A stretch of 39,483 nt of DNA, taken from positions 1 through 39,483 of IMG/VR virus record IMGVR_UViG_2563366928_000012. One strand, 5' to 3'. This document shows positions 1-39,483 of the stretch, one piece after another. The translations under genes were made by a program, and so were the position numbers. Positions within the stretch are counted from its first letter, which is position 1, and each line of letters starts with the position of its first letter. Below the pieces are notes generated by a model that ran no database searches, was not told the origin of the DNA, and saw nothing but the letters and a program-made list of their open reading frames with translations. The DNA is from a virus (taxonomy: Duplodnaviria; Heunggongvirae; Uroviricota; Caudoviricetes).

Positions 1-2946
1 TTAGTGCTTCCCTTCTATTAAGTCTAACCTAGCTTTTATCTTATCCATTTCTCTGCGCTGCCATGCCGCCTCGATATAGAATAAGAGATCAGGTCTGACC
101 CCCCATCTAGATCCTGCTGGCGTTATTTCAACGCGCTCAATGATGTCTTCTATTACCATCACTGGATTATCATCCTCATCAACAATGATGCTCCCGTCAT
201 TATCAGTCAGCGGCATTTCCCTTTGGCCAGTAATGACGTCATCATATACTGCGGGATAATCGTCATAGCAAAGAAAGGCATAGCGGCATGTTGTGCTTTC
301 TTCTTCCATGAGTCCGTGAGAAATAAGAACATCACGAAGTTGCTGCGCGATTACACCATGATGTATCCTCGCCCCTTCTTCCCCCTTTATAGCGACAGCG
401 TTCAGCCATTTATAAGCGATATACCTGACGTCACCCCAGGCATCCAGCAATGCTTCGTCAGGAGAGACCGGCTCTGTCTTTAATGTTCCGTCACTGGTAA
501 CCACAGGATTGGAGCCAAGATAAACTGTCGAGAACCTGTTTCCCGGACCACCAAGAGCATTTACATTATCAAGATAAGGTTTAACATCTCCGTTCTCAAA
601 AAGATGTTCGAGTGCGTTATATACCGCGCGACGTGGAGTACTGCTTCTGGAACCATGCAACGTTATCATTGCACCATCTGCTGAAGACGTTGTTTCACCG
701 CCGCTAACGATTAATCTCTGAGCGGTAACATCATCAGACGGTACTTTCTTCGCAATAATGGCGTAATTACCCTCAAGTTTGACTTCCGCGCGAACTTGTC
801 CTGATGTACCTGCATGGACAGTCAGTGACTGGACGGCAACATCATCTGTGAAATCAACGGGTACAGGAACCGTCCTCACGCCTGACGTCGACATAAAAGT
901 AGGAAGCGTTCTGTTAGGAGTGGCTCCGTAGACAAAATCCCTTGAAACAAATTCTTCCTGTTTAATTTTCACCCTGAAACAATACAAATCAGCCGGGTGA
1001 CCATCGTGAACATAAGGATATTTTCTGTTGTTATCCCCTATGCTCCATGGGTTTAGAAAGTCTTCCCCACCGAAAATGTAGTACAGCCAGTTGTCTTTGA
1101 TACAAACTGAACCAACACCAACCGCAGAGTTAACTATTCCGCCCTGATAAATCTGATCAGTAACATTAACCCACTCTACATTATCCAGACTCCACTCATT
1201 GACGTTAACTCTGGTCATAAATGTTCTTGGATAATTTCCTGCATAACGGTTATCAGGTTCTCCTCCTTCCCACTCACCAAATGCGCGCTCACTGCCAAAA
1301 ATAATCAGCTCATCGCCAACTTTGGCAAAAGGAAGGTTTGAGTGATGAACATTATTTGGGAAGCGAAGAGAATTCCATGATGTACCTAAATCAGAGCTTC
1401 TGTGCAATGAACTACCGGGTTGAGTACTTAATGTCCCCCTGGTCGTCAGATACAGAATGCCATCATAATATTTTACACATGGCTCAGATGCATTCGCCTC
1501 ATATTCTACAGGTATGCGTCTGCGAACAAAGCTACCAGGAGAACCGAAAGCATCAGAGAAATAGAGTATCCCAAGCTCGCGTGGACCAATATCACCATTA
1601 TGGTAGCCAACAGCAAAACTGTTATCGCTAATCGTCGCAAAACTGTGAATCTCAGTAACAGGAGTGCTTCCGTCAACAAAAGAAGGAATAGTTCCAAGAC
1701 TGGTTTTTCTCCATGGTGACGAGTGAAATGATGTGCCAAAACTCCAGTATCTACCCTCGTTATTCTGATCCACATCCTGGGTATTTTGCGTCGTAACTGT
1801 AAAGGTATTTTTATCAATAACAGTAGTCACCGTCATATTCCCGGTAACACCTGTAACACCAGAGTTTGAGAAGTTGACAAAATCACCAGCAAATAATCCG
1901 TGATCAGTAATGCGAATATAAGCGACTTGCTGATTTGCTGCTTTCGTTATACCACCATAAACGCGAAGGCTGCGACTCATTGGGCGATCCCACAACTCTG
2001 CAACCTGCAGTTTATTTCCTCTCACGGTCCGCGTCTCAATTACAGCAAAAAGGCGATTTCTGACAACCCCCATACTCATGCAGTGATAGTTAACTGTGGG
2101 ATAGTTTTCATGTAAATCTGTAAGCCATTCCGGCGTTGTCCAGGTCTTCCCGTCATCTCCTGAGCGAACCCATGCAACATGGAGGTTATTTACACCATGG
2201 CGGTCTCCAGCCATAAAAGGCGCATAGATGACATTGTCATATACAAACGTTTTATCCTGCGTCCAGGCGTTGTACCACGGTGTATCTGTAATTTTAAATA
2301 ACTCTCCCTGGATAAAATCTTCAGAAGCATAAAAAAGAGGCTGACCCGGTATTCTCTCAAATAAAAAACGAGCATTTTTAAATCGACTGACATCTGGAAG
2401 AGTTGATACTTTAAAAGTAAGCCCTCGCCCATCTATCTTTTCACCACCTGTTGCAACAGAAAGTAATTCTGATAGAGCTGATGTATCATCATGAACACCA
2501 TCACCAATAGCCCCCCAACCTCTTACATCATAACTGTCTCTCCATCTTGCTATCTGAAGTTTTGGGTATTTATTCGCTCCATCTGGGTCTTCTAATTGCC
2601 GCCGTAACTGATCAGGATCATACTTCAGCACATTCGGAAAATAGAACTGCTGCGCACCATACGCATCATAAACAGCCATAGAATGGCCTTGCACAGTTAC
2701 GAATTTGGCAATCTGTCCGTTATATACAGGATATCCAGCAGCGTTAATGATGATTGGTTGCGAAACAGGAACGTGAGAGCCGTCTTCGTTTTCCACATAA
2801 ACCTGAATCTGGTTTTCAGGATTTACAGGGTCAGTGTCAATTTTACCGATATAAATTTTGCCATTGGCTACGGCTTTAAAAGAACGCGCCATAGTGAAGA
2901 GTTGCGAAGGCATCGATACGATCACATTGGCTGTAATGTCTCTCAT
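1..2946 (-). CDS. Tailspike: P22-type head-binding N-terminus fused to endo-N-acylneuraminidase (endosialidase) with C-terminal intramolecular chaperone domain
   Basis: 981 aa ORF. N-terminus [11 protein letters not shown]...[21 protein letters not shown] matches recalled P22 gp9 head-binding domain. Sialidase Asp-box motifs SGDDGKTW and SSDLGTSW. C-terminal region resembles the autocleaving chaperone domain of endosialidase tailspikes. GGAG RBS upstream of ATG at 2946. Confidence 0.8.
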
Positions 2947-3002
2947 TTAATTTGCTCCAGACACAAGGAATCGCCGCAGCATGGCTACGGTGAATTTTGG
3001 GC

Positions 3003-3029
3003 ATAAAAAAACCCAGCCGAAGCTGGGTC
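3003..3029 (-). terminator. Intrinsic terminator between ant and tailspike
   Basis: Minus-strand hairpin ACCCAGC-TTCG-GCTGGGT followed by TTTTTTTAT. Confidence 0.5.
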
Positions 3030-3046
3030 GTTGCGTTGGTTATCTG

Positions 3047-3949
3047 TCAGTAGTTATGTACTGAAGGAGGTAATTCTTTATTCTTAAGTCTCATCCATGC
3101 GGAAAGATTCGTTGGTCCGTCTGGCTCATTAATATCAACATCTCGTGTATGGTTGATTAAAACATCTCTCGCTATATCGATAATACGGGAGAACTCATAA
3201 CCGCAGTCATGACATCTGCCGGAATAGTTCGATTGAATTTGTTTCAGCGCCGGATACAGTTCGCGGAATAATGCCTGTGAGCGGTTGGCATAATCCCATA
3301 ACCATACAAGGCTGTTTGCTTCTTTTGCAGAAAGCTCGTTGACTTTCCTCTCTTGTTTGCCAATGAACTCACCTTCAAGCACTACCCTGTGGATGTACTC
3401 TACGGCTTGCGGTATCTGAGATGCATCAAGCTCTTCAATACTTTCCACATTGAAACGCTGATGAATCATTGCATAAGCTTCTGGGTACATTAGATGCTTT
3501 TTGCTGACCAGCATATTTACAGCATCACGAAGCGGAGTCCTGTCATCAACAGATGTTTTCTTACGTGCATTTTCTGCCTTTCCCTTTGTCCAGTAGTCAT
3601 GCAGCACAGTAAAGCATTCTTCCTGGTACTGAATCAGTTTATCGCGGATGTCAGCACGAACTTTCTCGGGGTTGATGCTGAACAGCCATCCATTTAACTT
3701 CTTCAAAGGAAGGCAGAGTAGCTTACGAAGCTTTCCATCAGCAGCAACCATATTCATATGAATACAGTTGAACTTATCTAGTTGTTTCATAAGTTTTTGT
3801 TGCTGAGTACCCCAGCTCATTCCGAGGTTTTCAACGATTGGCTTCATCGCAACATATGCAACTCCGGCAGCCATGGCGGTGATAATTTGCTGACCGTTGA
3901 ATGGTACGTAAGAGGTGTTCACTGCTTCTAAAATTGCTATACTATTCAT
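3047..3949 (-). CDS. ant: Antirepressor Ant (immI)
   Basis: 300 aa from internal ATG ([10 protein letters not shown]...) with GGAGAA RBS; position downstream of arc and upstream of tailspike as in P22. The longer track ORF start at 4015 is judged read-through. Confidence 0.7.
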
Positions 3950-4011
3950 GTTGGTTTTTCTCCACGGATTTACTGACAACCGAAGCCCTGACTGTTCCCG
4001 CAGTTGGGGCT

Positions 4012-4215
4012 TCAACTTTCTGATCTATCAGTTATATCTTTCCCTTCATATACTTCACCTATATTGCTAATGCTGGCAGAACATCCAAGATGCTTGTATC
4101 TTATGATGTCCAACACGCAGTCACTACACAGCATCCGACCTGTTTCTTTAGAGTAAATGTATGTTTGATCAGCGTCTGATTCGCTAATGCCGCAGAAACA
4201 ACATTCTTTACTCAT
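4012..4215 (-). CDS. Small Cys-rich (zinc-ribbon-like) protein inserted between arc and ant
   Basis: 67 aa with CCFCG, CSDC and a further Cys. Start ATG overlaps the arc stop (ATGA), suggesting translational coupling. Confidence 0.45.
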
Positions 4216-4364
4216 ACCATTACCCCCTCTCTCTTCAAGCTGTCTATCAGGCGCTTGATAACCTCTGAGTTAAACGACCTGCACTCTTCCTTTGCCCTGC
4301 TACCTATAGCATCCTTTAACGACTGCGGCATCCTTACCAAAATCTTACTTATTTCTTTCTCCAT
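4212..4364 (-). CDS. arc: Arc-like ribbon-helix-helix repressor
   Basis: 50 aa from ATG with GGAGGG RBS; motif CRSFNSEVIKRLIDSLKREG resembles P22 Arc (RSVNSE motif). Confidence 0.75.
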   Translation of the reverse strand: MEKEISKILVRMPQSLKDAIGSRAKEECRSFNSEVIKRLIDSLKREGVMV

Positions 4365-4400
4365 GTTACCCTCCACACAAACAACTCTTTTCGAATACAA

Positions 4401-4478
4401 AAGATATCAAAGTGAGTATATCTAGTCAAAATTTTTTTGCATACACTTTGCTATCAAATTGAATACCAAAGGTGTGAT
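4401..4478. promoter_or_regulatory. Divergent arc/ant and mnt promoter-operator region
   Basis: Intergenic region between divergent arc and mnt; contains inverted repeat CAAAGTG ... CACTTTG and a GATATC palindrome. Confidence 0.4.
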
Positions 4479-4727
4479 ATGGCAAAGGGTGTGTCAATTT
4501 CTCCAACTACGGTAAGAATCCCTGAATCTTTACGCGAGGCTCTTGCTGTCAGAGCATCAAAAAATGGTCGCTCTGTTAACTCCGAGATCGTCATGATTTT
4601 GCAAGCCGCGATTGATGAAGATAGGTCGCCAAAGTCAGTTGAGTCATTTGCTCAGCAAGAAGCTGACAAATTCAAAGAGGCGCTGCTTGAGACGCTAAAG
4701 ACCATGTATGGTAAGGATGAAAAATAA
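4479..4727 (+). CDS. mnt: Mnt-like repressor
   Basis: Starts MAKGVSISPTTVRIPESLREALAVRASKNGRSVNSEIV; RHH with GRSVNSE motif as in P22 Mnt/Arc family. Stop overlaps next ATG by one base. Confidence 0.75.
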   Translation: MAKGVSISPTTVRIPESLREALAVRASKNGRSVNSEIVMILQAAIDEDRSPKSVESFAQQEADKFKEALLETLKTMYGKDEK

Positions 4728-5263
4728 TGCTGCACACAATTCATTTCTTATGCCCCGTTAACACTGCCACTGTTGGGCAACTTCAGAACCACTGTCTCAC
4801 CGCATTATCTCAAGGCGCAACTGAATTAAATATCCATATATCAAGTCAGGGAGGGGAAACTGCCGCTGGCTTTACTGCGTATAACTTTCTTAAGTCACTC
4901 CCTGTTACCGTTAGAACTCACAACATAAGCAATGTTGAATCCATAGCTAATATCGTTTTCCTGGCTGGCTCAGAACGTTTCGCAAACCCATTATCAAGAT
5001 TCCTGTTACATCCTCTATTATGGTGCTTTGCCTCCCCAGCCGCCGACCATGCCAGATTGAGAGAGTACGGGAAATGCCTCGATAACGATCTTGATCGCTT
5101 CGTTGAGACGTTCAATATCGACATCGGAACCCATATTAGGTGGGCATCCCTGATAGCAGACTCGACCATTTTGGATGCTAACAAGGCTCTTGAGCATGGC
5201 ATAATTAATTCCATAAAAACTGCAAGGCTGGCATCCAATCAGGCAAACTGGTGGGTTGTTTGA
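4727..5263 (+). CDS. ClpP-like (S14 Clp-fold) serine protease homolog
   Basis: 178 aa. ISSQGGETAAGFTAYNFL...SIANIVFLAGSERF...LLHP aligns by eye with ClpP (INSPGGVITAG...SMGAFLLTAG...MIHQP), with Ser and His conserved. Coupled to mnt. Confidence 0.55.
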   Translation: MLHTIHFLCPVNTATVGQLQNHCLTALSQGATELNIHISSQGGETAAGFTAYNFLKSLPVTVRTHNISNVESIANIVFLAGSERFANPLSRFLLHPLLWCFASPAADHARLREYGKCLDNDLDRFVETFNIDIGTHIRWASLIADSTILDANKALEHGIINSIKTARLASNQANWWVV

Positions 5264-5286
5264 TGGGTAAATCATGATTACTCCTT

Positions 5287-5320
5287 ATAAAAAACCCACC
5301 TGACGGTGGGATTTTCTTAT
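5287..5320. terminator. Bidirectional intrinsic terminator between convergent genes
   Basis: AAAAAA-CCCACC-TGAC-GGTGGG-ATTTTCTTATT; A-run upstream and T-run downstream of the stem. Confidence 0.6.
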
Positions 5321-6309
5321 TCTTTATCTTTTAAGTCTATGGTTCTTTGTCCAATAACCTTTTCATCTATGTATTTCTCATACTCTTCTCGAGTATCAGA
5401 AACCATTGCAATACCAGTAACCTTACCTATTTGGGTTCTAAGAGCCTTAACTCCAACCTCTGATAAAAACTGGTGTATTTTATCGTTTTTGCTGCCTTTT
5501 TCTTCTTTTGACGTTTTTGCTAAATTAAATACCTTTCCTTCACTTCTGGCTAATGGGTAATAAATGTGATCTATCGTAAGATATTTAAACGCCCATGGTC
5601 GCCCTCTAACTGGTTTGTCTATACCATACAGACGATACCAATGCTCATAAAGTTCAGGGGTGAACTCTCTTTCATACTCACGAGCCTCTTCAGCAACATA
5701 TCGCTTATATGCTTGAATTACCTCTTCTTTTGTTCTGTCATACCCTGCCAAAGCATAAACAAGCCCCTGAATGCCCGCCTTGGCTGATGCATCAATAATG
5801 ATTCTGGCTTGCTTAGCAATCCCTTCCTGACTGGAAAGCAACTTACCTTCAGCTTTAGCATTAGAGATTGCTCGACATAAATCAATTAATATTGTTACAT
5901 CGTAGCCATGTATTACAGGATTAGCTGGAGTGTTCGTGCCCGCCTGTTTGTATTGAAAAATAAGAGGATTTTCAAGTTTTGCCCTTAATTCATGCCCGAT
6001 ATACTGAGAAATAGTTTTCCCCTGAATAAACTTTGGCAACCTGCTGCCACCTTCGCCAAGACCAATCGCTTCTCCCATGCCTCTCTGGCTAATAACGGCA
6101 GTTTTGTTATCATCATTTAACACATAGCACTCAACATCAATCCCGAATTCATGCTGGAACGATCCCTTATGCGTAGCAATTAATGGTTTATCCTTCCATC
6201 TTGCAGCCGCTGCTTTCTTTGCTATTTCAGAACGCTGCTCTTTAGTCAGCGACTTTGCGCGAGCGATACCGCCCTTAGCTTTCCCTTCGCCACTTTTCTT
6301 TTCAGTCAT
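5317..6309 (-). CDS. Hypothetical 330-aa protein with basic N-terminal putative DNA-binding region (accessory cargo)
   Basis: Start MTEKKSGEGKAKGGIARAKSLTKEQRSEIAKKAAAARW; rest not recognised with certainty. Longer track ORF start at 6384 rejected. Confidence 0.55.
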   Translation of the reverse strand: MTEKKSGEGKAKGGIARAKSLTKEQRSEIAKKAAAARWKDKPLIATHKGSFQHEFGIDVECYVLNDDNKTAVISQRGMGEAIGLGEGGSRLPKFIQGKTISQYIGHELRAKLENPLIFQYKQAGTNTPANPVIHGYDVTILIDLCRAISNAKAEGKLLSSQEGIAKQARIIIDASAKAGIQGLVYALAGYDRTKEEVIQAYKRYVAEEAREYEREFTPELYEHWYRLYGIDKPVRGRPWAFKYLTIDHIYYPLARSEGKVFNLAKTSKEEKGSKNDKIHQFLSEVGVKALRTQIGKVTGIAMVSDTREEYEKYIDEKVIGQRTIDLKDKE

Positions 6310-6310
6310 A

Positions 6311-6400
6311 ATGCAAGCACCTTTATTGTGATGTATGCTTGCATTATATGCACTGTACACACATACAAGCAAGCATAAAACCAAAACAAAATGCTTGCAT
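6311..6400. promoter_or_regulatory. Operator-like inverted repeat array in divergent promoter region
   Basis: Four copies of an 8-9 bp motif as two inverted pairs: ATGCAAGCA (6311-6319) / TGCTTGCAT (6336-6344) and GCAAGCAT (6369-6376) / ATGCTTGC (6391-6398). Confidence 0.5.
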
Positions 6401-6465
6401 TACAACCGCGCTACTCCAACTACACATTATCATCTGGTATCCTGAGCAAAACTAAGGAGGTTGGT

Positions 6466-6795
6466 GTGCTTGAATGGTTTCTGTTGGCTGCATTAGTCGT
6501 TTCTGGTTTGGTGTATGAGTATCGAATGCACTCTCTAACAAAAAAAATAGGAATTCTAGAAAACGAATATTGTGCTCTCAAATCCTCACTGGAACGTGAG
6601 CAAGGGGACTTAAAAATCTCTCTGTCTAGCATTGAGCGTTCTATAGAGAGCTTAGAGGATAAGGTTGATCGTATAAAGAATGAGGATATTCATGATATTA
6701 AGGACGACATATCCTTCTTAAAATCTTGGTTGAAAAATGTTGGGAAAATTGCCACATCAACACGAGATAAGCTCAATCCATCCATGGATGACTAA
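6466..6795 (+). CDS. Small membrane-anchored coiled-coil protein (accessory cargo)
   Basis: GTG start 5 nt after AGGAGG RBS; N-terminal hydrophobic helix LEWFLLAALVVSGLVYEY followed by charged heptad-like region. Converges on gp16 stop. Confidence 0.5.
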   Translation: MLEWFLLAALVVSGLVYEYRMHSLTKKIGILENEYCALKSSLEREQGDLKISLSSIERSIESLEDKVDRIKNEDIHDIKDDISFLKSWLKNVGKIATSTRDKLNPSMDD

Positions 6796-29885: not shown

Positions 29886-29895
29886 GATCCGCTTA

Positions 29896-30919: not shown

Positions 30920-31477
30920 TTGGCAAAAATAGATGATTATCAGCCAAGCCAAGTAGAAGTTGATAAAGTACTTTATTGTAAAAAAATAGTTAACTTTTCT
31001 GGCGTTAAATGGAAACAGAAACCAAGTCGCTCTGATATGTGGCTACAAGCTCATATCATCCCCTTGGATGAGGATTGTATACCTATACAAGGGCTAAAGT
31101 TTGAACTGAAATGGAAACCAGATCAGGATTCAGAACCTGATGACCCGATTTCTTACCCTAAAATAAATATTATTGCTTTCTATCATAACAAGAGGGTTTT
31201 CGCGGTAGATACCTATCACTTTGACAAACACACGAATAGTTACAAGGTCGATCATCCGAAGTACCAAGATATCATTTACGGTGCTCACTACCATGTATAC
31301 TATGAAGAAGCTGGATACTATAGTGATAGAATAGCGTTTCCAATCGAAGATGACATAAACCCAGATGACCTGGTAGGGTATTGGAATTACTTCTGTAAAC
31401 ATCTGAACATAACTTACTCTGGGAGAATACCTTTACCGCTTGAAGATGAGTCGGGGCAAATGGGGTTTGGAATATGA
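30920..31477 (+). CDS. Hypothetical protein A of AT-rich two-gene operon downstream of cI (candidate exclusion/defence gene)
   Basis: 185 aa, Tyr/His/Asp-rich, no recognised domain; possible D...E-x-K motif (PLDED...KFELK). Stop overlaps next gene start (ATGA). Confidence 0.55.
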   Translation: MAKIDDYQPSQVEVDKVLYCKKIVNFSGVKWKQKPSRSDMWLQAHIIPLDEDCIPIQGLKFELKWKPDQDSEPDDPISYPKINIIAFYHNKRVFAVDTYHFDKHTNSYKVDHPKYQDIIYGAHYHVYYEEAGYYSDRIAFPIEDDINPDDLVGYWNYFCKHLNITYSGRIPLPLEDESGQMGFGI

Positions 31478-32226: not shown

Positions 32227-32231
32227 TACAA

Positions 32232-32258
32232 CCCGGCCTCAGCGCCGGGTTTTCTTTG
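32232..32258 (+). terminator. Intrinsic terminator ending the cI operon (tIMM-like)
   Basis: CCCGGC-CTCA-GCGCCGGG then TTTTCTTT. Confidence 0.6.
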
Positions 32259-32399
32259 CCTCACGTTCGCCCACCTAAAAACACATAACCAATTATATTT
32301 ATTGAAAAATAAATAGATGCAACCCACTAAACCACGCAATTCTGATCTCTCCTTACATCGCCGAGACAATACATCCACGCTAAAAAACAACACTATTAA

Positions 32400-32475
32400 A
32401 TACAAAGCGTTATAAAAAACCACGCCAACTTACAACAAATTGTATTGATCTTGTAAAGTACATATCGTACTATTT
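32400..32475 (+). promoter_or_regulatory. PL/OL-like region
   Basis: Contains TACAAAGCGT and AAAGTACATAT (reverse complement of an OR word) and TACAA-N4-TTGTA inverted repeat, upstream of nutL and N. Confidence 0.4.
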
Positions 32476-32519
32476 AACCGTCAGCAGGACGCTGGAAGCC
32501 AAATGGAACAGACTGGCAG

Positions 32520-32565
32520 GCTCTTTAAACAACGTCGACTCTCGACTACGTGGCTGAAAAGCCAG
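32520..32565 (+). promoter_or_regulatory. nutL-like site (boxA plus boxB)
   Basis: boxA GCTCTTTAA (32520-32528), then boxB hairpin TGGC-TGAAAA-GCCA (32551-32564), upstream of N. Confidence 0.55.
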
Positions 32566-32662
32566 ATCACCCAACCACATAAGCTGTGGGATGCAATGCC
32601 GAAGCAACCGTCTCAGGAGGAGCTTCGAGATTGCATCGCCAAAGTTTATTCGGGAGGAATCC

Positions 32663-32935
32663 ATGTCCAGAAAAACAGAATTTAAAGGCACCGCAGCTTC
32701 TCGCCGTAGAGCTCGTCGCGCAAATCTGCAAAGTCAGGAGGCGATCAGCTCCGACAAGCTACACAGGCCAACCCCTTCACGAGTGGTCTTGCAATGCAAG
32801 CGCAAACCAGCAATGAGAGCAGAAGTAATAACACTGACAACGTTGACCAGAAAATATGAAGGTTCAACTTGTCTTCCGAACGTAGCTCTTTACGCGGCAG
32901 GCTACCGGAAATCCAAACAACTGACAGCAAGATGA
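32663..32935 (+). CDS. N: Antiterminator N (P22 gp24-like)
   Basis: Arg-rich motif GTAASRRRARRANLQ near N-terminus; C-terminus NVALYAAGYRKSKQLTAR matches recalled P22 N tail; GGAGG RBS. Confidence 0.75.
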   Translation: MSRKTEFKGTAASRRRARRANLQSQEAISSDKLHRPTPSRVVLQCKRKPAMRAEVITLTTLTRKYEGSTCLPNVALYAAGYRKSKQLTAR

Positions 32936-32993
32936 CTTGTGTTGGTCGCCAGAAAATGAAATTAGGCAGCAAACCACTTATTTGAGGTGAGAT

Positions 32994-33080
32994 ATGGAAG
33001 AAGAATTTGAAGAGTTCGAAGAGCATCCTCAGGATGTGATGGAACAATACCAGGACTATCCGTATGACTACGACTATTGA
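32994..33080 (+). CDS. Candidate 28-aa highly acidic aromatic micro-protein
   Basis: GAGGTGA RBS then ATG; encodes MEEEFEEFEEHPQDVMEQYQDYPYDYDY; below the ORF-track length cutoff. Confidence 0.35.
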   Translation: MEEEFEEFEEHPQDVMEQYQDYPYDYDY

Positions 33081-33150
33081 TAAGAATCAATGGTGTGGAC
33101 AATACGAACGACGACAATGATTGCCAGAGAACTTGGTAAACAGAACAACA

Positions 33151-33178
33151 AGGCTGCCTGATGGTGGCCTTTATTTTT
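33151..33178 (+). terminator. Candidate weak intrinsic terminator
   Basis: AGGCTGCC-TGAT-GGTGGCCT (two wobble pairs) then TTATTTTTGG. Confidence 0.3.
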
Positions 33179-33203
33179 GGCATAAACAACAGAGGCGAAG
33201 ACG

Positions 33204-33398
33204 TTGACAGTTGGAAAGTCATATTCAACTAAAAACGGAAAAACATTTAGTTGTGAAAAAGATATTGGAGAAATAGACACTATCTTTCCATTTGGTGGGT
33301 GGGTATACAATTCTGATGGAAGCAAAGACAGATTTGCATATTACACCAGAGGAGGTGCGTATAAACTAACCAAATCAGAATATGATTTAATTATTTAG
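33204..33398 (+). CDS. Small AT-rich hypothetical protein
   Basis: 64 aa ORF; apparent TTG start after AGAGG. Confidence 0.3.
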   Translation: MTVGKSYSTKNGKTFSCEKDIGEIDTIFPFGGWVYNSDGSKDRFAYYTRGGAYKLTKSEYDLII

Positions 33399-33502
33399 CA
33401 CAGAGAAGCACTGTGTATTCATTCCAACGAGTGAATACACGGAGCAATGTCGCTCGTAACTAAACAGGAGCCGACTTGTTCTGATTATTGGAAATCTTCT
33501 TT

Positions 33503-33528
33503 GCCCTCCAGTGTGAGGGCTTTTTTAT
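33503..33528 (+). terminator. Intrinsic terminator (tL-like)
   Basis: GCCCTC-CAGTGT-GAGGGC then TTTTTTAT. Confidence 0.6.
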
Positions 33529-33589
33529 ATGCATACCAATAACGCTTCACTCGAGGCGTTTTTCGTTATGTATAAATAAGGAGCACACC

Positions 33590-33730
33590 ATGCAATATGC
33601 CATTGCAGGGTGGCCTGTTGCTGGCTGCCCTTCCGAATCTTTACTTGAACGAATCACCCGTAAATTACGTGACGGATGGAAACGCCTTATCGACATACTT
33701 AATCAGCCAGGAGTCCCCAAAAATGGATAA
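33590..33730 (+). CDS. Small hypothetical protein
   Basis: 46 aa (MQYAIAGWPVAGCPSESLL...), TAAGGAG RBS. Confidence 0.4.
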   Translation: MQYAIAGWPVAGCPSESLLERITRKLRDGWKRLIDILNQPGVPKNG

Positions 33731-33836
33731 AACACTTATGGCTATCCAGACTAAATTCACTATCGCCGCTTTTATTGGCGATGAAAAGATGTTTCGTGAG
33801 GCCGTCGAAGCCTACAGAAAATGGAGGTCAAAATGA
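33723..33836 (+). CDS. Small hypothetical protein
   Basis: 37 aa (MDKTLMAIQTKF...), AGGAG RBS; overlaps neighbours as in tightly packed early-left operons. Confidence 0.3.
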   Translation: MDKTLMAIQTKFTIAAFIGDEKMFREAVEAYRKWRSK

Positions 33837-34021
33837 TTCCGGTAGAACTGGCGAAAACTCCAGAGTTAAGTCGATTAAAAAGAGAATATCATATTGCTGA
33901 GGCTCGTTACTGGCGTAAAGCGGGAGATAAATCAAAGAAACAACTTTGCTTATGGCAGGCACAAAGAGAGCGCATGAATGAGCGTGAGTTTCTTTCCTCC
34001 CCATCCGAATTACCATTCTGA
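33833..34021 (+). CDS. Small hypothetical protein
   Basis: 62 aa (MIPVELAKTPELSRLKREYH...), GGAGG RBS. Confidence 0.35.
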   Translation: MIPVELAKTPELSRLKREYHIAEARYWRKAGDKSKKQLCLWQAQRERMNEREFLSSPSELPF

Positions 34022-34029
34022 GGCAAATT

Positions 34030-34710
34030 ATGGGAACTGCGACATTAATACTCGGTGAATCTGGCACCGGAAAATCAACCAGCATGAGAAATATCAATCC
34101 AGAGGAAGCAATACTTATAAAACCAATAGGCAAGCCGCTTCCATTTAAATCAAAAGACTGGCTGGCATGGGATGCCAGAGCAAAAAAAGGAACCGTAGTT
34201 ACCACTGACAAATGGGACGTAATAGTTGCCGTAATTAAGCGTGCTCACGAATACGGGAAAAGAATCGTTATTGTTGATGACTTCCAGTATGTGATGAGCA
34301 ATGAGTTTATGCGCCGCTCAGAAGAAAAATCGTTTGATAAATTTACTGAGATAGGCCGCCACGCATGGGAGGTGATTAAGGCTGCACAGGATGCACCTGA
34401 TGACCTGAGAGTCTATTTTCTTGCACACACCGAAGAAACCCCTATGGGGCGTGTGAAAATGAAGACTATCGGCAAAATGCTGGACGAGAAAATCACTGTC
34501 GAAGGCATGTTTACTATAGTTCTTCGCACCCTTACCCGCGATGACCAGTTCTTTTTCACCACGAAAAACAACGGTGCAGACACTGTAAAATCCCCAATGG
34601 GAATGTTTGATTCTAATGAGATTGATAACGATCTCTCTTTCGTCGATGCCACTGTTTGTGATTACTACGGCATCAATAATGTTCATCAAATTAAGGAAAA
34701 CGCCGCATGA
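34030..34710 (+). CDS. P-loop ATPase, Sak4-like (RecA-fold single-strand annealing/recombination protein)
   Basis: 226 aa; Walker A GESGTGKST at residues 9-17, Walker B-like IVIVDD; position equals the lambda exo/bet recombination slot. Confidence 0.5.
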   Translation: MGTATLILGESGTGKSTSMRNINPEEAILIKPIGKPLPFKSKDWLAWDARAKKGTVVTTDKWDVIVAVIKRAHEYGKRIVIVDDFQYVMSNEFMRRSEEKSFDKFTEIGRHAWEVIKAAQDAPDDLRVYFLAHTEETPMGRVKMKTIGKMLDEKITVEGMFTIVLRTLTRDDQFFFTTKNNGADTVKSPMGMFDSNEIDNDLSFVDATVCDYYGINNVHQIKENAA

Positions 34711-35294
34711 GCAACGTGATTTTTACTTATAACGAAGAAGCAGCACTGACCGCAGGGCAAGGTGGTTTTATTAACGAAACTGGTGCTCATATCATTACCA
34801 TTACTGAAGCAGAACTAAAGCAATCAGAAAAAGGAGCCAAATTTATTGAGTTTTCTGGCGAATCTGACGACGGACGTAAAATCCAATATCTTAGCGTCTG
34901 TGTTCAGAAAAATGACGGAACGGAAAACAAATTTGGCGCAAATGTCGTTCACGCCATGATGGGGTGTGCCGGGATTGGACAATTAACGCAACATATGGTT
35001 TCCGCCAGTAAATTTGTTGCTCCTGAGTTTCATGGAAAGAAAATCGGGTTAGTGCTCCAGAAAGTATTAACCACAAACAAAAAGACTGGCGCAGACAGCT
35101 ACCAGATGGAAATACGCATCCCGTTTATTGCACAAACAGGTCAAACCCTTAAAGAAAAGGCGGAAGGCAAGCAACCAGAAACTATCGCCAACATGGTTGC
35201 CAGCCTCAAAGATAAAGACAATCGCTCTAAAAACGTAAGCCATAATCATGCAGATGATTATGGTTACAGCCAGAACGATTACCCTCCTTTCTGA
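34707..35294 (+). CDS. Sak4-associated protein, possible ssDNA-binding protein with acidic C-terminal tail
   Basis: 195 aa ending ADDYGYSQNDYPPF, reminiscent of SSB C-terminal tips; overlaps ATPase stop. Confidence 0.35.
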   Translation: MSNVIFTYNEEAALTAGQGGFINETGAHIITITEAELKQSEKGAKFIEFSGESDDGRKIQYLSVCVQKNDGTENKFGANVVHAMMGCAGIGQLTQHMVSASKFVAPEFHGKKIGLVLQKVLTTNKKTGADSYQMEIRIPFIAQTGQTLKEKAEGKQPETIANMVASLKDKDNRSKNVSHNHADDYGYSQNDYPPF

Positions 35295-35317
35295 TTATTG
35301 AAAATAAGGCTCCCATT

Positions 35318-35614
35318 ATGCCAGCGCCTCTGTATGGTGCGGATGACCCGCGCAATTGCTCCGGTAGCTCCAAGGCGGAGGTGCTGGAAAATATCAAAAA
35401 CAATTTCGACGCGTTTCTTGCTCTGACACCAGAAACAAAAGCAGAACGGATGTACCGACGCGATATACAACTCGCGCTAAAACAGGAGAAGGACCGAACA
35501 AACGAAACAGCAATGAGACCGTTGCGAAAAGCGACAATAGACAAATTCCCTGAATATATCGACCCGCGCCTGCGTAATTACCGCTCACGCTATGGCGCTA
35601 TCAGTAATGACTGA
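35318..35614 (+). CDS. Hypothetical protein
   Basis: 98 aa ORF in the early-left operon. Confidence 0.35.
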
Positions 35615-35624
35615 GGAATTTACC

Positions 35625-35792
35625 ATGAGAGGACTTGCATACAATCCCGGCATTCTTCCGGCAGAAATGATTATTCGCCAACGCGTAAAGCCAATGCCAT
35701 CGAGAGAGGAATTGCTTAAGAGAAATAGTTTCGGTTCTGTTAATGACAACAAATATCTGAATGCGATGTGGCGCAAAGGAGGCAACCAGTGA
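35625..35792 (+). CDS. Small hypothetical protein
   Basis: Internal ATG ([15 protein letters not shown]...) preceded by GAGGAA. Confidence 0.3.
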
Positions 35793-35913
35793 GCGAAATT
35801 AATTACCAGGCATTGCGTGAGGTGGCGGAACGTGCAATTCCAGCAATGGAATGCCTGTTAATGTTGCCAGCTGATGATGATTTGTTAAGTGAACAGGAAC
35901 TAAAGATTACGGT

Positions 35914-36369
35914 GTGGATATTGATGCGCTCAACGCCTTCAAATTTCTGGCCGGACCAGAAACCGTGCTGGCACTACTGGATGAACGGGAAAGAAACCAG
36001 CAATACATAAAACGCCGCGACCAGGAGAACGAGGATATTGCGCTAACGGTTGGGAGGCTGCGCGTTGAGCTTGAAGCAGAACAGAAAACATCAGCAGCCA
36101 GACTTGAGGCGCTCGACCGCACCCACAAAATGTTCCAACGGGAACAATGCAGGGCAGAGGCCGCAGAGAAGCGCATTGCAGAGTTAGAAAGTGGTTCTCA
36201 GGCACAAAAGTTAGTTGAAGCAATCATTGTTGCGATAGAAAACGAACAGGAACGTCTTTTTGATGAAGATTACCTAATGGATTCGAAAGAATGCATTGAC
36301 ATAATTCGTGAAGAAGTAAAGCGATGGAATGATTCCCGCGCCGCTGGCATTCGCATCAAAGGAGAGTGA
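35914..36369 (+). CDS. Coiled-coil hypothetical protein
   Basis: 151 aa, strongly helical and charged; conflicts with overlapping ORF 35768-36010, so start uncertain. Confidence 0.35.
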   Translation: MDIDALNAFKFLAGPETVLALLDERERNQQYIKRRDQENEDIALTVGRLRVELEAEQKTSAARLEALDRTHKMFQREQCRAEAAEKRIAELESGSQAQKLVEAIIVAIENEQERLFDEDYLMDSKECIDIIREEVKRWNDSRAAGIRIKGE

Positions 36370-36370
36370 T

Positions 36371-36592
36371 ATGGCTAACTCATTACTTGAAACCTGCAAC
36401 AACTGGCAGATTCAGAGGGCGGAGATTTTATCTCGCAATCCAGATATGGCAATGACAATTGATAATCTGGATACGCTAATTGAACGGACCGTGCGTTCTG
36501 CAATTGATATAGCACGTCGAGTTGACTGGGATTTCAGAGAAGCGGAGCGGCTTGCTAAAGAGCAGGAGAAAGCAGCGGGTAAAGGAGACTGA
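36371..36592 (+). CDS. Small hypothetical protein
   Basis: 73 aa from MANSLLETCNNWQ, GGAGAG RBS. Confidence 0.4.
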   Translation: MANSLLETCNNWQIQRAEILSRNPDMAMTIDNLDTLIERTVRSAIDIARRVDWDFREAERLAKEQEKAAGKGD

Positions 36593-36593
36593 T

Positions 36594-36791
36594 ATGGATA
36601 AAAACATCACTGCTTACTGGAATCTGTCACTCGATACCGAATGCCCAAAATGCGGTCACAATTTCGATCTGCTTTGTGATGCTGATTTCTGGGAGTTTTC
36701 TGGAGCTAAACAGGCATGTGAAGAAATAAAAGGTTACGAAACATGCTGTCCAGAATGTAACCATGAATTTAAAACAGATTTCGTGTATTGA
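36594..36791 (+). CDS. Small zinc-ribbon protein
   Basis: 65 aa with CPKCGH ... CCPECNH; GGAGAC RBS. Confidence 0.4.
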   Translation: MDKNITAYWNLSLDTECPKCGHNFDLLCDADFWEFSGAKQACEEIKGYETCCPECNHEFKTDFVY

Positions 36792-36801
36792 GGCATAACA
36801 A

Positions 36802-37404
36802 ATGACCACTATTACCAGAGAAAACGCGGAAATTAAATCATTCATCACTGGTTTCCTGAGCGACCCGGCGCACGATAACCAATCTTCAGACAGCCTGCTT
36901 GCCAATGTGTTTCGTATTGCTCTGGCATCGCTAGAAGCAGAACCTGTAAGCCAAACTTACAACTTGCCACAAACGCACTTTGAACAGGTTGCTGACCTTT
37001 ACGAAATGCAATTTGATGACGGACGCACTTGTGCCTTTCATACTGATGCGCAAAAGGCTGCGCAATGGCTTCGGGCATGCGACGGAAACAGGGTTCAGGA
37101 ATACGTGAAACTGGAGCGACTGCAGAACGCGCTATCGGGCAACTCTCCGGTAATTCCGGATAGTTGGATAAGCTGTAGTGAGCGAATGCCAGAAATGGGA
37201 GAGCGACAATGCTATGTGTTAGCTGCTGACTTTAAAAACAACTACCCACCAAGCATCCCCAACACTCAGGTCGGCGTATATGGCGACTGGTTTAATGATG
37301 GCAAGCCCACTTGGGATGACGGTGGTGGCGAAGACCTGTATCTCAAGGAGGTAACCCACTGGATGCCTCTACCAGAACCGCCGCAGGAGGTTAACCGTGG
37401 CTAA
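36802..37404 (+). CDS. DUF551-like phage protein
   Basis: 200 aa ending THWMPLPEPP, a C-terminal signature I associate with DUF551 lambdoid proteins. Confidence 0.45.
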   Translation: MTTITRENAEIKSFITGFLSDPAHDNQSSDSLLANVFRIALASLEAEPVSQTYNLPQTHFEQVADLYEMQFDDGRTCAFHTDAQKAAQWLRACDGNRVQEYVKLERLQNALSGNSPVIPDSWISCSERMPEMGERQCYVLAADFKNNYPPSIPNTQVGVYGDWFNDGKPTWDDGGGEDLYLKEVTHWMPLPEPPQEVNRG

Positions 37405-37681
37405 CCTGCAACTTGCCGTCAAAGGTGAATACTTCGATGCCATGATTCGCGGAGAGAAAACGGAAGAGTATCGCCTGTGTAATGACTACTGGAATAAGCG
37501 AATTATGTTCCGGGAGTATGACCGCCTGATTATCACAAAGGGATATCCGAAGCGCGACGACTTCAGTCGCAGAATTGATGTCCCGTATGACGGATATGAA
37601 ATCAAGACAATCACACATCCCCACTTCGGCGATAAACCGGTAAAGGTATACGCGATAAAGGTGAATATCAGCAATGAATAA
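37397..37681 (+). CDS. Small hypothetical protein (possibly ASCH/PUA-like)
   Basis: 94 aa ORF overlapping the preceding stop; fold assignment is a guess. Confidence 0.3.
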   Translation: MANLQLAVKGEYFDAMIRGEKTEEYRLCNDYWNKRIMFREYDRLIITKGYPKRDDFSRRIDVPYDGYEIKTITHPHFGDKPVKVYAIKVNISNE

Positions 37682-37753
37682 CAATTCTCGCATTCGCGGG
37701 GATTTCTTTTATCTGAACTCGCTACGGCGGGTTTTGTTTTATGGAGATGATAA

Positions 37754-38098
37754 ATGTCAGATTTGGCTATGAAGGTTTTGAAATGGCAATCGACTGGCGA
37801 TGTTGGCATCAGTAGCGCAACTCTTGCCTCAATCGCATGTGGCCTGAAAAAGAATATCTATGGTCATAGCTTCGGTGCTCCACATGACGCAGCCGATTTC
37901 CGGCGATGCGTTGCACTTGTTGAGCAGATTCCAGAAATCAGAGATTCATTCGACAAGGTTGCACAGCGCGTTCCGGCATTCAAAGGCATCCTCAACGAAT
38001 GGGATTCCCTCGTTGCTCTGTTGAAGTCTGAAATGAAGATACACGGAAACAAAGCACCAGAGACTTACAGAAGAATTAGCGAACTACGCAAGGACTAA
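37754..38098 (+). CDS. Hypothetical protein
   Basis: 114 aa ORF upstream of xis. Confidence 0.35.
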   Translation: MSDLAMKVLKWQSTGDVGISSATLASIACGLKKNIYGHSFGAPHDAADFRRCVALVEQIPEIRDSFDKVAQRVPAFKGILNEWDSLVALLKSEMKIHGNKAPETYRRISELRKD

Positions 38099-38213
38099 CC
38101 ATGGAATCACACAGCCTCAAACCCAATGAGGCCTGTTCATTTCTCAAGATATCCAGACCTACCATTGCCGCATCAATGCGGCTTTTCTTGCGTGTAATTG
38201 CGGAGACTTTGCG

Positions 38214-38432
38214 ATGTACTTGACACTTCAGGAGTGGAACGCACGCCAGCGACGCCCAAGAAGCCTTGAAACAGTTCGTCGATGGGTACGCGAGTGCAGG
38301 ATATTCCCTCCTCCGGTTAAGGATGGAAGAGAGTATTTGTTCCACGAATCAGCGGTAAAGGTTGACTTAAATCGACCAGTAACAGGTAGCCTTTTGAAGA
38401 GGATCAGAAATGGGAAGAAGGCGAAGTCATGA
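38214..38432 (+). CDS. xis: Excisionase (lambda Xis)
   Basis: 72 aa MYLTLQEWNARQRRPRSLETVRRWVRECRIFPPPVKDGREYLF, matches recalled lambda Xis. Confidence 0.9.
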   Translation: MYLTLQEWNARQRRPRSLETVRRWVRECRIFPPPVKDGREYLFHESAVKVDLNRPVTGSLLKRIRNGKKAKS

Positions 38433-39483
38433 GCGCCGGGATTTACCCCCTAACCTTTATATAAGAAACAATGGATATTACTGCTACAGGGACCCAAGGA
38501 CGGGTAAAGAGTTTGGATTAGGCCGAGACAGGAGGATAGCAATCACTGAAGCAATACAGGCCAATATTGAGTTACTCTCAGACAGCGGACGCAAATCACT
38601 GATAGACAGAATTAAAGGCGGTGACGCAATCACTCTTCATGTGTGGCTTGACCGATATGAAAGAATCCTCACCGAAAGGGGGATCAGGCCGAAAACTCTA
38701 CTCGACTACGCCAGCAAAATCAGGGCAATCCGAAGAAAATTGCCGGACAAACCGCTCACTGACATATCAACGAAAGATGTGGCAGCAATGCTAAACACCT
38801 ACGTAGCAGAAGGTAAAGCAGCTTCCGCAAAATTAATCAGGTCAACCCTTGTTGACGTTTTTCGTGAAGCAATAGCCGAGGGGCATGTGGCAACGAATCC
38901 GGTAACAGCAACCCGTACAGCAAAGTCAGAAGTAAGGCGCTCAAGGCTGACAGCTAATGAGTATGTCGAGATTTACCATGCAGCCGAACCTCTCCCTATC
39001 TGGCTAAGGCTGGCGATGGATTTGGCTGTCGTTACAGGGCAGAGAGTGGGCGATTTATGCAGAATGAAATGGTCAGACATAAACGACAACCATCTTCACA
39101 TTGAACAGAGTAAAACAGGGGCTAAACTCGCCATTCCGCTAATGCTAACGATTGACGCGCTCAATATCTCATTGGCTGATACACTACAGAAATGCAGGGA
39201 GGCCAGCAGCAGTGAAACTATAATCGCATCAAAGCATCACGATCCGCTTTCCCCGAAAACAGTATCAAAGTATTTTACAAAGGCGAGAAATGCATCTGGA
39301 CTCTCATTTGATGGAAACCCGCCAACATTCCATGAACTGCGTAGCCTGTCAGCAAGGCTATACCGGAACCAGATTGGCGATAAGTTTGCTCAACGTCTTC
39401 TCGGGCATAAATCAGATTCAATGGCTGCGCGGTATAGGGATAGCCGTGGACGGGAATGGGACAAAATTGAAATCGACAAATGA
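38410..39483 (+). CDS. int: Tyrosine integrase (lambda Int family)
   Basis: 357 aa; N-terminus MGRRRSHERRDLPPNLYIRNNGYYCYRDPRTGKEFGLGRDRRIAITEAIQAN and C-terminus GREWDKIEI match recalled lambda Int; overlaps xis as in lambda. Confidence 0.9.
   Translation: MGRRRSHERRDLPPNLYIRNNGYYCYRDPRTGKEFGLGRDRRIAITEAIQANIELLSDSGRKSLIDRIKGGDAITLHVWLDRYERILTERGIRPKTLLDYASKIRAIRRKLPDKPLTDISTKDVAAMLNTYVAEGKAASAKLIRSTLVDVFREAIAEGHVATNPVTATRTAKSEVRRSRLTANEYVEIYHAAEPLPIWLRLAMDLAVVTGQRVGDLCRMKWSDINDNHLHIEQSKTGAKLAIPLMLTIDALNISLADTLQKCREASSSETIIASKHHDPLSPKTVSKYFTKARNASGLSFDGNPPTFHELRSLSARLYRNQIGDKFAQRLLGHKSDSMAARYRDSRGREWDKIEIDK

Follow-up and report, generated by a model that had tools for sequence, protein, structure and literature searches.

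The 39,483-nucleotide stretch of DNA analyzed here over its whole length, and referred to as the window (IMG/VR virus record IMGVR_UViG_2563366928_000012), very probably represents one intact-looking genome of a P22-like temperate phage (Lederbergvirus), a relative of phage CUS-3 that resides in Escherichia coli as a prophage and whose early, integration, and lysis genes form a patchwork. Judged by nucleotide and protein similarity, the late region is a virion module of CUS-3 type ending in an endosialidase tailspike. By the same measure, gp16 and the recombination genes are of HK620 type, the block from Q through the tRNAs, nin, S, R, and Rz is of Sf6 type, the replication genes are of Sf101/720R6 type, and xis, int, and attP are of HK022 type.

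Results

Mosaic layout of the genome

Six-frame open reading frames (ORFs), composition, and database comparisons showed the window to be a single temperate phage genome, and Pfam, PHROG, and Rfam assignments were obtained for every module. It begins exactly at the tailspike stop codon and ends exactly at the int stop codon. Genes on the minus strand occupy positions 1 to ∼30,100 and run from right to left through cro, cII, replication, nin, Q, and lysis, and then through packaging, head, ejection proteins, immI, and tailspike. Plus-strand genes (30,185 to 39,483) comprise cI, a two-gene cassette, N, cIII, kil, recombination and ea genes, xis, and int. Gene order and Pfam assignments revealed a lambdoid early layout with divergent cI and cro, N, cII, cIII, O-type replication, nin, Q, and a lysis/late operon. 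Together with P22-like virion synteny, a head-binding tailspike, and an immI region, this layout places the genome among the P22-like phages.

Ten references were compared locally with the window: CUS-3, lambda, HK620, P22, Sf6, HK022, Sf101, vB_EcoP-720R6 (720R6), phiv205-1, and a prophage of strain CE10. Counting any blastn match, coverage of the window was 57.9% for 720R6, 53.9% for CUS-3, 52.8% for phiv205-1, 46.2% for Sf101, 37.5% for HK620, 30.3% for Sf6, 23.0% for P22, 15.0% for lambda, and 14.4% for HK022. Similarity was bimodal, lying either above 90% or below detection, with matched stretches that were mostly 92 to 99% identical and ended abruptly. Segments absent from the 10 references were almost all 91 to 99% identical to other lambdoid phages (N7, HK140, mEp213, and ev017); in the ea region (36300 to 37400), the best match to such phages was only 87.5%. 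No isolated phage was found to hold at least 80% of either half of the window. Likewise, a search of 5,426 complete E. coli genomes (RefSeq) with positions 26000 to 39483 yielded no place holding at least 80% of them, so that no complete RefSeq genome carries this exact combination.

Tiling by dynamic programming, in which switches between references were minimized, divided the window into 26 segments with 25 internal junctions. Twenty of these were intergenic or lay no more than 15 bp from a gene end, a class that makes up 12.4% of window positions (binomial P, ∼2e-14). The remaining five fell within the hkcB-like, gp16, gp20, ea22-like, and DUF551 genes, and the ends of pairwise high-scoring segment pairs (HSPs) gave further junctions inside ant (3379), in the cI interdomain linker (30470), and in Rz. 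The initial annotation, made from the sequence alone, had described a modular mosaic and had named uniform similarity to a single reference phage as the finding that would speak against it. The alignments showed no such uniformity, and with coverage of at most 58% by any reference and a 26-segment tiling, the mosaic description holds. It had also stated that module junctions coincide with accessory loci. Noncore cassettes indeed lie between differently related blocks, most clearly in the slot occupied by rexAB in lambda, but part of the coincidence is built in, since a segment that none of the references contains gives rise to two junctions by itself.

Could the window be a diverged copy of CUS-3, with blocks that stem from uneven mutation rates and not from exchange? 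The virion half matches CUS-3 best (96.8% DNA identity across 9745 to 20938 and 98.5% in the tailspike). However, 46% of the window had no blastn similarity to CUS-3 and was yet 94 to 100% identical to HK620, Sf6, Sf101, 720R6, HK022, or ev017. Moreover, the replication, recombination, integration, Nin, and immunity genes are nonorthologous replacements, among them a toprim primase versus DnaB, Sak4 versus Erf, and an HK022 Int versus a CPS-53-type Int. Given the unmatched 46% and the nonorthologous modules, the alignments refuted this explanation, whose probability we regard as practically nil.

Virion module of CUS-3 type

The virion genes stand in P22 order (terS, terL, portal, scaffold, coat, gp4, gp10, gp26, gp14, gp7, gp20, gp16, immI, and tailspike), as had been noted at first and as gene order and Pfam P22 families confirmed. 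The following features were assigned:

1 to 2946, minus strand: endosialidase tailspike (K1 polysialic acid), 981 amino acids (aa); Pfam; 99% identical to CUS-3 siaK1
6796 to 11046, minus strand: ejection proteins gp16 (6796 to 8931), gp20 (8928 to 10343), and gp7 (10354 to 11046); tblastn; Pfam Phage_P22_gp16, Inj_translocase, P22_gp7
11049 to 14263, minus strand: head-completion and tail-hub genes gp14, gp26 (tail needle, 11504 to 12205), gp10, gp4, and orf62; 97 to 99% identical to CUS-3; Pfam DUF2824, Phage_stabilise, P22_Tail-4
14305 to 18759, minus strand: procapsid genes for coat (14305 to 15558), scaffold (15577 to 16470), and portal (16561 to 18759); Pfam P22_CoatProtein, P22_portal
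18761 to 20858, minus strand: large terminase, small terminase, and an hkbM-like DUF2560 gene; tblastn; Pfam Terminase_3, DUF2560

The tailspike contained the Pfam domains Head_binding, End_N_terminal, End_beta_propel, End_beta_barrel, End_tail_spike, and Peptidase_S74 (a C-terminal chaperone), with the P22-type Head_binding domain at residues 1 to 113 (E = 2.4e-66). These domains and the 99% identity to siaK1 bore out its earlier identification as an endosialidase; its DNA was 99.3% identical to that of phiv205-1.

The head had been taken for one of P22/Sf6 type, which the comparisons contradicted. By tblastn, coat, scaffold, portal, and gp4 were 99 to 100% identical to CUS-3, whereas coat was ∼30% identical to P22 and gave no match to Sf6, and portal was 35% identical to P22 and 55% identical to Sf6. 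In sequence, the head is of CUS-3 type and neither of P22 nor of Sf6 type. The CUS-3 type is said to be one of three recognized P22-like procapsid types, as laid out by Casjens and Thuman-Commike in 2011. The large terminase was 100% identical to those of both Sf6 and CUS-3 and the small terminase 97% identical to that of CUS-3; only the large terminase and gp10/gp14 were virion genes in common with Sf6. Procapsid, packaging, and head-completion genes were 97 to 100% identical to those of CUS-3 (CP000711.1; a K1-specific P22-like phage of E. coli RS218) and stood in the same order, and the window combines CUS-3-type procapsid genes with an endosialidase tailspike, as K1 phages of this type do.

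The ejection proteins were less uniform. While gp7 was 98% identical to CUS-3, gp16 was only 71% identical to CUS-3 versus 92% to HK620 (tblastn), and gp16 and the adjacent hkcB-like gene together were 96% identical to HK620 at the DNA level. gp20 is an intragenic mosaic, in which segment 8785 to 9684 was 99% identical to phage N7. Ejection proteins of P22-like phages are known to be mosaic, gp16 and gp20 highly so (PMC10883804).

In some related prophages (loci L011, L012, and L017), an HNH/NUMOD4 homing endonuclease gene lies between gp10 and gp26; it is absent from the window.

Source of the lambda-like genes

Proteins near-identical to those of lambda had been reported in the initial annotation. 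By global alignment this held for Xis (71/72 residues), S (106/107), NinH (68/68), NinF (54/56), the NinI phosphatase (211/220), and the CI C terminus, but not for NinE (only 53/60). Most of these are encoded in the lysis and nin regions:

21708 to 22925, minus strand: lysis cassette of Rz (21708 to 22145) with embedded Rz1 (21761 to 21946), R (22142 to 22618), and S holin (22602 to 22925); global alignments
23168 to 23323, minus strand: tRNA-Thr(TGT) and tRNA-Asn(GTT) between Q and S; ARAGORN and Rfam; the same in Sf6 and phage 21
23387 to 23905, minus strand: late antiterminator Q of Sf6/CUS-3 type; 98% identical to Sf6, 96.5% to CUS-3, and 25% to lambda
23896 to 26358, minus strand: nin region with NinI phosphatase, NinH, NinG, NinF, NinE, NinB, and orf68; alignments; Pfam NinB

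S and the R endolysin (154/158 residues identical to lambda) are of lambda/Sf6 type. Rz and Rz1 are of P22/Sf6/CUS-3 type, Rz being 61% identical to lambda versus 95% to Sf6 and 89% to P22, so that the cassette is not the full lambda S-R-Rz set that it had been called. The embedded Rz1 frame was present, with a lipobox visible in the +1 frame. Compared with CUS-3, Q and S-R-Rz were 94 to 100% identical. The Sf6 annotation describes its Q as similar to that of phage 21. The description of the nin region as lambda-like applied to NinF, NinG (198/203), NinH, and NinI, which like NinE are of lambda/Sf6 type, and failed for NinB, a divergent allele with 47% identity to lambda. DNA from 23903 to 25694 was 97.1% identical to lambda. 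However, positions 21707 to 25711, which reach from Rz through the tRNA pair and the non-lambda Q to NinE, form one contiguous match to Sf6 (AF547987) at 97.5%, with a main alignment of 3,555 bp at 97.6%. Because of this contiguous match, the lambda-like nin and lysis genes are alleles already resident in P22-like phages and not a lambda insert.

The near-lambda genes could also suggest a recent direct hybrid of lambda and a P22-like phage, similar to laboratory lambda-P22 hybrids, since Xis, S, R, NinF, NinG, NinH, NinI, and the CI C-terminal domain were 96 to 100% identical to lambda. Each lambda-like stretch was, however, at least equally similar to some non-lambda phage. The nin-lysis block was 97.6% identical to Sf6 versus 92.6 to 97.1% to lambda, within a contiguous match of 4 kb that includes the non-lambda Q and tRNAs, and int-xis was 94.7% identical to HK022 versus 76% to lambda. 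The 15% of the window that lambda covers was scattered over 11 separate HSPs of 98 to 1,792 bp (13 HSPs in all). As the matches to Sf6 and HK022 equal or exceed those to lambda, we rejected a direct hybrid as very unlikely, and it is misleading to see the genome, as the initial annotation did, as a P22 virion combined with pieces of lambda.

Integration between torS and torT

The integration module forms the right end of the window:

38214 to 39483, plus strand: HK022-type integration module with Xis (38214 to 38432) and Int (38410 to 39483); Pfam Exc, Arm-DNA-bind_1, Phage_integrase on an identical locus

Xis was identical to that of HK022 (NC_002166) in 72/72 residues, and Int was identical in 343/357 residues (96.1%) to HK022 versus 266/356 (74.7%) to lambda (global alignments). 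At the DNA level, xis-int was 99.9% identical to the CE10 prophage, where it adjoins torS. In the broad sense, this is a lambda-family Int/Xis module, whose attP arms are homologous to those of HK022 and lambda. Lambda-type integration in the strict sense, with lambda Int specificity and an attB at gal/bio, did not apply; the int proposed earlier to be of lambda type is of HK022 type, and the site is torS/torT.

Exact-protein look-ups recovered identical public loci. Positions 1 to 16309 and 11397 to 31672 were 100% identical to one contig of 1.25 Mb (GCA_000407865.1 KE136712.1), and 26802 to 39483 were 100% identical to a second assembly (GCA_026303655.1). In the identical loci, an 11-bp direct repeat, TTCACCTTAAG, was located 617 bp past position 1 on the torT side and 73 bp past position 39483 on the torS side, placing attP just past the window end. 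Host flanks were torS beyond int and torT-torR-torCA beyond the tailspike; torT and torS are neighbors in uninterrupted genomes. Compared with the whole prophage, the window thus falls short by ∼617 bp on the left and ∼73 bp on the right, plus the att cores, in agreement with the earlier statement that it holds the complete prophage minus its att sites. HK022 likewise integrates between torS and torT, with the same distance of 73 bp from int to the junction (Carey et al., PMC6814406). Prophages with HK022-like integrases occupy this site in ∼5% of E. coli genomes, and in HK022 lysogens torS is driven by a promoter in the P′ arm, with loss of the bet hedging in aerobic torCAD expression (PMC6814406). 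In the right flank (L023, 12683 to 12776, outside the window), the P′ arm differs from that of HK022 at several central positions and is identical near the junction. A similar effect of this prophage on torS is plausible.

The left flank of 617 bp (L016, 16310 to 16926, outside the window) contained, from the core inward, an HK022-like P arm followed by the last 84 bp of a CUS-3/HK620/Sf6-type int with 242 bp downstream of it, 98.8% identical to CUS-3. Next, CUS-3 positions 1592 to 2433 (the neuO region) had no counterpart, and the 92 bp leading up to the tailspike stop codon followed. As the int remnant adjoins the HK022-like P arm, it records, like a fossil, that xis-int-attP of HK022 type took the place of an integration module of CUS-3 type. 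The polysialic acid O-acetyltransferase gene neuO was absent from the left flank of the identical locus, where CUS-3 positions 1592 to 2433 are missing; the prophage therefore lacks the capsule O-acetyltransferase gene.

These loci also bear on whether the window is an assembly or extraction artifact that joins two prophages, a P22-like one for the late genes and a siphoviral one, such as that of CE10, for the early genes. Its early-left arm and int were indeed 98 to 99.9% identical to the HK97-like siphoviral prophage of CE10. However, a single 1.25-Mb contig matched positions 1 to 31672 at 100%, the second assembly continued this match to the right end, and a metagenome scaffold (L020) matched the right arm at 99.99%. 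The genes form a complete, nonredundant set, and the torT and torS flanks are adjacent in uninterrupted genomes. With overlapping loci of 100% identity from independent assemblies, a chimera was rejected, and we consider it extremely improbable.

Replication, immunity, and early leftward genes

The remaining early features were as follows:

26435 to 29422, minus strand: replication genes for a toprim/DnaB-like primase-helicase (626 aa), a 35-aa ORF, an O-type initiator (286 aa), and a DUF2740 gene; Pfam Toprim_2, AAA_25, DnaB_C, Phage_rep_O
29455 to 30880: immunity region with cII (29455 to 29754, minus strand), cro (29896 to 30111, minus strand), OR, and cI (30185 to 30880, plus strand); 93% DNA identity to 720R6
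30920 to 32226, plus strand: two-gene cassette in the rexA-rexB slot, DUF6978-like (185 aa) and DUF1828 (250 aa); Pfam
32227 to 33836, plus strand: tIMM-like terminator, OL/pL, orf60, N (32663 to 32935), ral pseudogene (∼33060 to 33200), cIII, and kil
33577 to 33635, plus strand: lambda cIII RNA thermosensor; Rfam
33833 to 35792, plus strand: HK620-type recombination genes for orf62, Sak4-like ATPase (34030 to 34710), SSB-like protein (34707 to 35294), Abc2 anti-RecBCD (35318 to 35614), and DUF2737; PHROG Sak4-like and SSB, Pfam Anti-RecBCD_p2
35789 to 38098, plus strand: ea-type small genes, namely frameshifted Ead/Ea22-like, orf73, orf65, DUF551, orf94, and orf114; gene calls and Pfam on identical locus L023

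The replication module is neither of lambda O/P nor of P22 18/12 type. At the DNA level, it was 98 to 99% identical to Sf101, 720R6, and the CE10 prophage, without a match to lambda; the O protein showed 50% identity to lambda O across the N-terminal half. Sf101 and 720R6 are P22-like phages, and this module, like the nin-lysis block, was already in circulation among such phages. CI was 70% identical to lambda overall, with a single mismatch in the C-terminal ∼135 residues (S24 domain), while the N-terminal DNA-binding domain (∼95 residues) was poorly conserved and not lambda-like. Neither cII nor cro was lambda-like, and Cro gave no match to lambda. Operator-like TACAA-N-TTGTA repeats occurred in OR and OL, and the operators differ from those of lambda. 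The phage thus lies outside the lambda immunity group, with only the S24 domain of CI being lambda-like.

The recombination proteins were 98 to 100% identical to HK620 hkaM/L/K, a set that is neither Red nor Erf. In the ral pseudogene, the N-terminal 13 and the C-terminal 20 codons matched lambda Ral in different frames, which indicates an internal deletion. The Ead/Ea22-like gene is split into two overlapping frames (35789 to 36369). CUS-3, the CE10 prophage, and Salmonella phages matched the ea region only in patches.

The cassette in the rexAB slot has sharp edges. Similarity to lambda stopped 1 bp past the cI stop codon (lambda position 37226) and resumed within the rexB stop codon (lambda position 35826), at the tIMM-like terminator to the right of the cassette. 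The pair was 99.9% identical in ev017, ev207, an Stx1a phage, PhiR57_1, and PhiR63_2, which, judging from genome size and name, look like long-tailed lambdoid phages. PADLOC returned a weak-to-moderate match of the pair to a candidate system (PDC-M24A, E = 5e-4; PDC-M24B, E = 6e-10), so that the two genes may be regarded as a candidate defense pair. A PDB sequence search with the DUF1828 protein found nothing, and the literature on DUF1828, DUF6978, and PDC-M24 yielded nothing relevant.

Secondary immunity region and packaging-lysis spacer

An immI-type secondary immunity region with mnt, arc, ant, and sar RNA was present between gene 16 and the tailspike gene, with the ClpP-like, P63C, and hkcB-like genes inserted as accessory cargo. 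It and the variable spacer between the DUF2560 gene and Rz contained the following features:

3047 to 3949, minus strand: antirepressor Ant, an intragenic chimera; Pfam P22_AR_N, P22_AR_C; gene call in identical locus L016
3950 to 4017, plus strand: sar antisense RNA; Rfam RF00262, 95.6 bits
4012 to 4364, minus strand: orf67 (4012 to 4215) and Arc repressor gene (4212 to 4364); phrog_7150; Pfam Arc in L016
4479 to 5263, plus strand: Mnt-like ribbon-helix-helix (RHH) repressor (4479 to 4727) and ClpP-like protein (4727 to 5263, 178 aa); Pfam Arc/FitA-like RHH, CLP_protease
5317 to 6309, minus strand: P63C-domain protein, 330 aa, start at ATG 6309; Pfam P63C; phrog_2384
6391 to 6795, plus strand: HkcB-like small membrane/coiled-coil protein in the position of P22 sieA; 94% identical to HK620 hkcB; phrog_5962
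20939 to 21706, minus strand: packaging-lysis spacer with orf61 (61 aa) and orf91 (91 aa); phrog_34701 (orf91)

The C-terminal part of Ant was CUS-3-like (98.5% DNA identity up to 3379), and the remainder was P22-like (85%). The stop codon of the mnt-like gene and the start codon of the ClpP-like gene overlap (ATGA); the two are translationally coupled in an immI region expressed in lysogens, and their DNA was 98.3% identical to phiv205-1. The ClpP-like protein is short at its N terminus, and its closest solved structure was that of an N-terminally truncated ClpP1 of Pseudomonas plecoglossicida (PDB 9uxt_A, E = 1.6e-35), a paralog that assembles into 14-mers and also mixes with canonical ClpP (PMC12900304). 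Of the catalytic residues, Ser and His were conserved, and Asp probably is as well. The PHROG label of this protein, “head maturation protease,” is probably wrong, because P22-like heads need no maturation protease.

For the P63C gene, the extended ORF starting at TTG has the wrong start, and the internal ATG at 6309 is the true one. The protein occurred in 880 index blocks of public assemblies, and in all places shown these were P22-like prophages carrying it in the same slot, between the gp16/hkcB-like and the ClpP-like/mnt genes. When the collection of isolated phages was searched by megablast, the gene body gave no match over 5320 to 6194 and only a 241-bp match beyond the gene start was obtained; a PDB sequence search with the protein returned nothing. 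PADLOC found no match for the ClpP-like, P63C, mnt-like, orf91, orf114, and ea22-like proteins and only marginal matches for the hkcB-like and DUF551 proteins (E = 0.003 to 0.01).

Apart from 21205 to 21397, the packaging-lysis spacer (20939 to 21706) had no match in the 10 references; 21205 to 21750 was 97% identical to HK140 and N7. A rha-like or another gene occupies this position in CUS-3, P22, 720R6, and Sf101, and orf91 was found in many P22-like prophages with differing terminase, lysis, and replication modules.

Discussion

Integrity of the prophage and limits of the interpretation

Instead of a functional phage, the element could be a defective, decaying prophage remnant. This would agree with the internal deletion in ral, the split ea22-like gene, and the loss of neuO and most of the older int in the flank. 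However, the genes known to be required in P22-like phages are all full length and 92 to 100% identical to those of plaque-forming phages, whether they serve packaging, head and tail, ejection, lysis, early or late control, replication, or integration and excision. There are no insertion sequences, and the identical loci retain both att arms. We therefore consider a remnant unlikely.

Several points weigh against reading the window as an intact mosaic genome assembled from a common pool. Junction positions are BLAST HSP ends and depend on the set of references and on the tiling penalties. The pool as the origin of the P63C gene is based on prophage data only, with no counterpart in isolated phages. 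The disrupted ral and ea22-like genes are both nonessential, and other subtle defects are possible. Finally, that the prophage is inducible, infects K1 strains, and integrates site specifically is what we infer from its sequence only.

Proposed origin and life cycle

Repeated recombination, for the most part at the borders of genes, would have built up the patchwork of this CUS-3 relative from a gene pool that lambdoid phages share. Exchanges between coresident lambdoid phages or prophages may have been homologous, at short shared sequences, or illegitimate. Selection would then have retained only products that preserve genes, leaving junctions at gene or domain boundaries, as in the model of PMC2629481. 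The tailspike predicts virion specificity for polysialic acid (K1) capsules, with adsorption by depolymerization of the capsule through the endosialidase. Like other P22-like phages, this one presumably packages its DNA by headfuls, with an Sf6-type terminase, and antitermination would be exerted by N and Q. A CI that combines its own operator specificity with a lambda-type, RecA-cleavable C-terminal domain would confer the standard behavior of a lambdoid lysogen, and HK022-type Int and Xis would mediate integration and excision of the prophage between torS and torT.

Mosaicism of this kind adds nothing new in itself. That lambdoid and P22-like phages exchange modules, join them at gene boundaries, and carry genes near-identical to those of lambda has been known for more than two decades (e.g., PMC2629481). 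Mosaicism is high in the early operons of P22-like phages, where identity to lambda genes reaches 99%, and the ant region is in high flux (PMC2629481). The phage is another member of a well-described kind and is present in public assemblies, where it should be filed as a CUS-3-type K1 Lederbergvirus with HK022-type integration at torS/torT and not as a lambda/P22 hybrid. K1 tailspike modules circulate with at least three integration modules, namely, the CUS-3 type, the lambda type (bio), and the HK022 type (torS/torT), and with or without neuO, which matters when capsule O-acetylation is inferred from prophage typing. Uncharacterized cargo occupies three slots, namely, immI, that of rexAB, and the spacer upstream of Rz. 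It is conceivable, though rather doubtful, that the module swaps matter for host biology. K1 lysogeny at torS/torT would then occur without capsule O-acetylation, an outward promoter in the P′ arm could rewire torS expression and the bet hedging of trimethylamine N-oxide (TMAO) respiration, and the cargo (the Mnt-linked ClpP1-like protein, P63C, and DUF6978/DUF1828) might represent superinfection exclusion or defense cassettes that move between podoviral and siphoviral lambdoid phages.

Comparison with known phages

CUS-3 differs from the window in its immI cargo and has its own modules for replication (DnaB-type P), recombination (Erf), immunity, Nin (including roi and rus), and ea genes. Its CPS-53-type int adjoins the tailspike gene together with neuO, and att cores are annotated at both ends of its record. 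This arrangement is not that of the prophage studied here, which carries an HK022-type xis-int at the opposite end, occupies torS/torT, and has no neuO in the identical locus. King et al. are said to have placed the attachment site of CUS-3 at argW in 2007.

Sf6 and HK620 (AF335538) each share modules with the window. In the case of Sf6, these are the contiguous 97.6% match over Rz-R-S-tRNAs-Q-NinI-NinH-NinG-NinF-NinE and the identical TerL, and in the case of HK620, they are gp16 with hkcB, the Sak4/SSB module (94% at the DNA and 98 to 100% at the protein level), cIII, and kil. Both differ in procapsid type (no coat match, portal 55%), tailspike receptor domains, integrases, immunity, and replication. 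HK022 resembles the window in Xis, Int, the attP arms (87 to 100%), the torS-torT site, and the 73-bp spacing, and lambda (J02459) resembles it in S, R, NinF through NinI, Xis, the CI C-terminal domain, and a conserved cI-rex-OL framework; however, both are siphoviruses, and their head and tail genes are unrelated to those of the window. Lambda further differs in Int, and the window has none of its rexAB, Red, O/P, Q, N, and immunity specificity.

The K1-type Lederbergvirus prophages 720R6 (ON470605.1) and phiv205-1 (MN340231.1) carry the same tailspike (98.7 to 99.3%) and CUS-3-type virion genes. 720R6 corresponds to the window in its primase-helicase/O module (98%), its immunity region (93%), and a general layout that has the tailspike at one end and a lambda-family xis-int at the other, but it adjoins the bio operon, on the side of the lambda attB, and is only 82% identical in int-xis DNA. 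Since this relative at bio combines a K1 tailspike with a lambda-family xis-int at the far end, the architecture is already represented in GenBank. phiv205-1 shares the mnt and ClpP-like cargo (98%) and differs by a CUS-3-type int and a tailspike gene disrupted by an insertion sequence.

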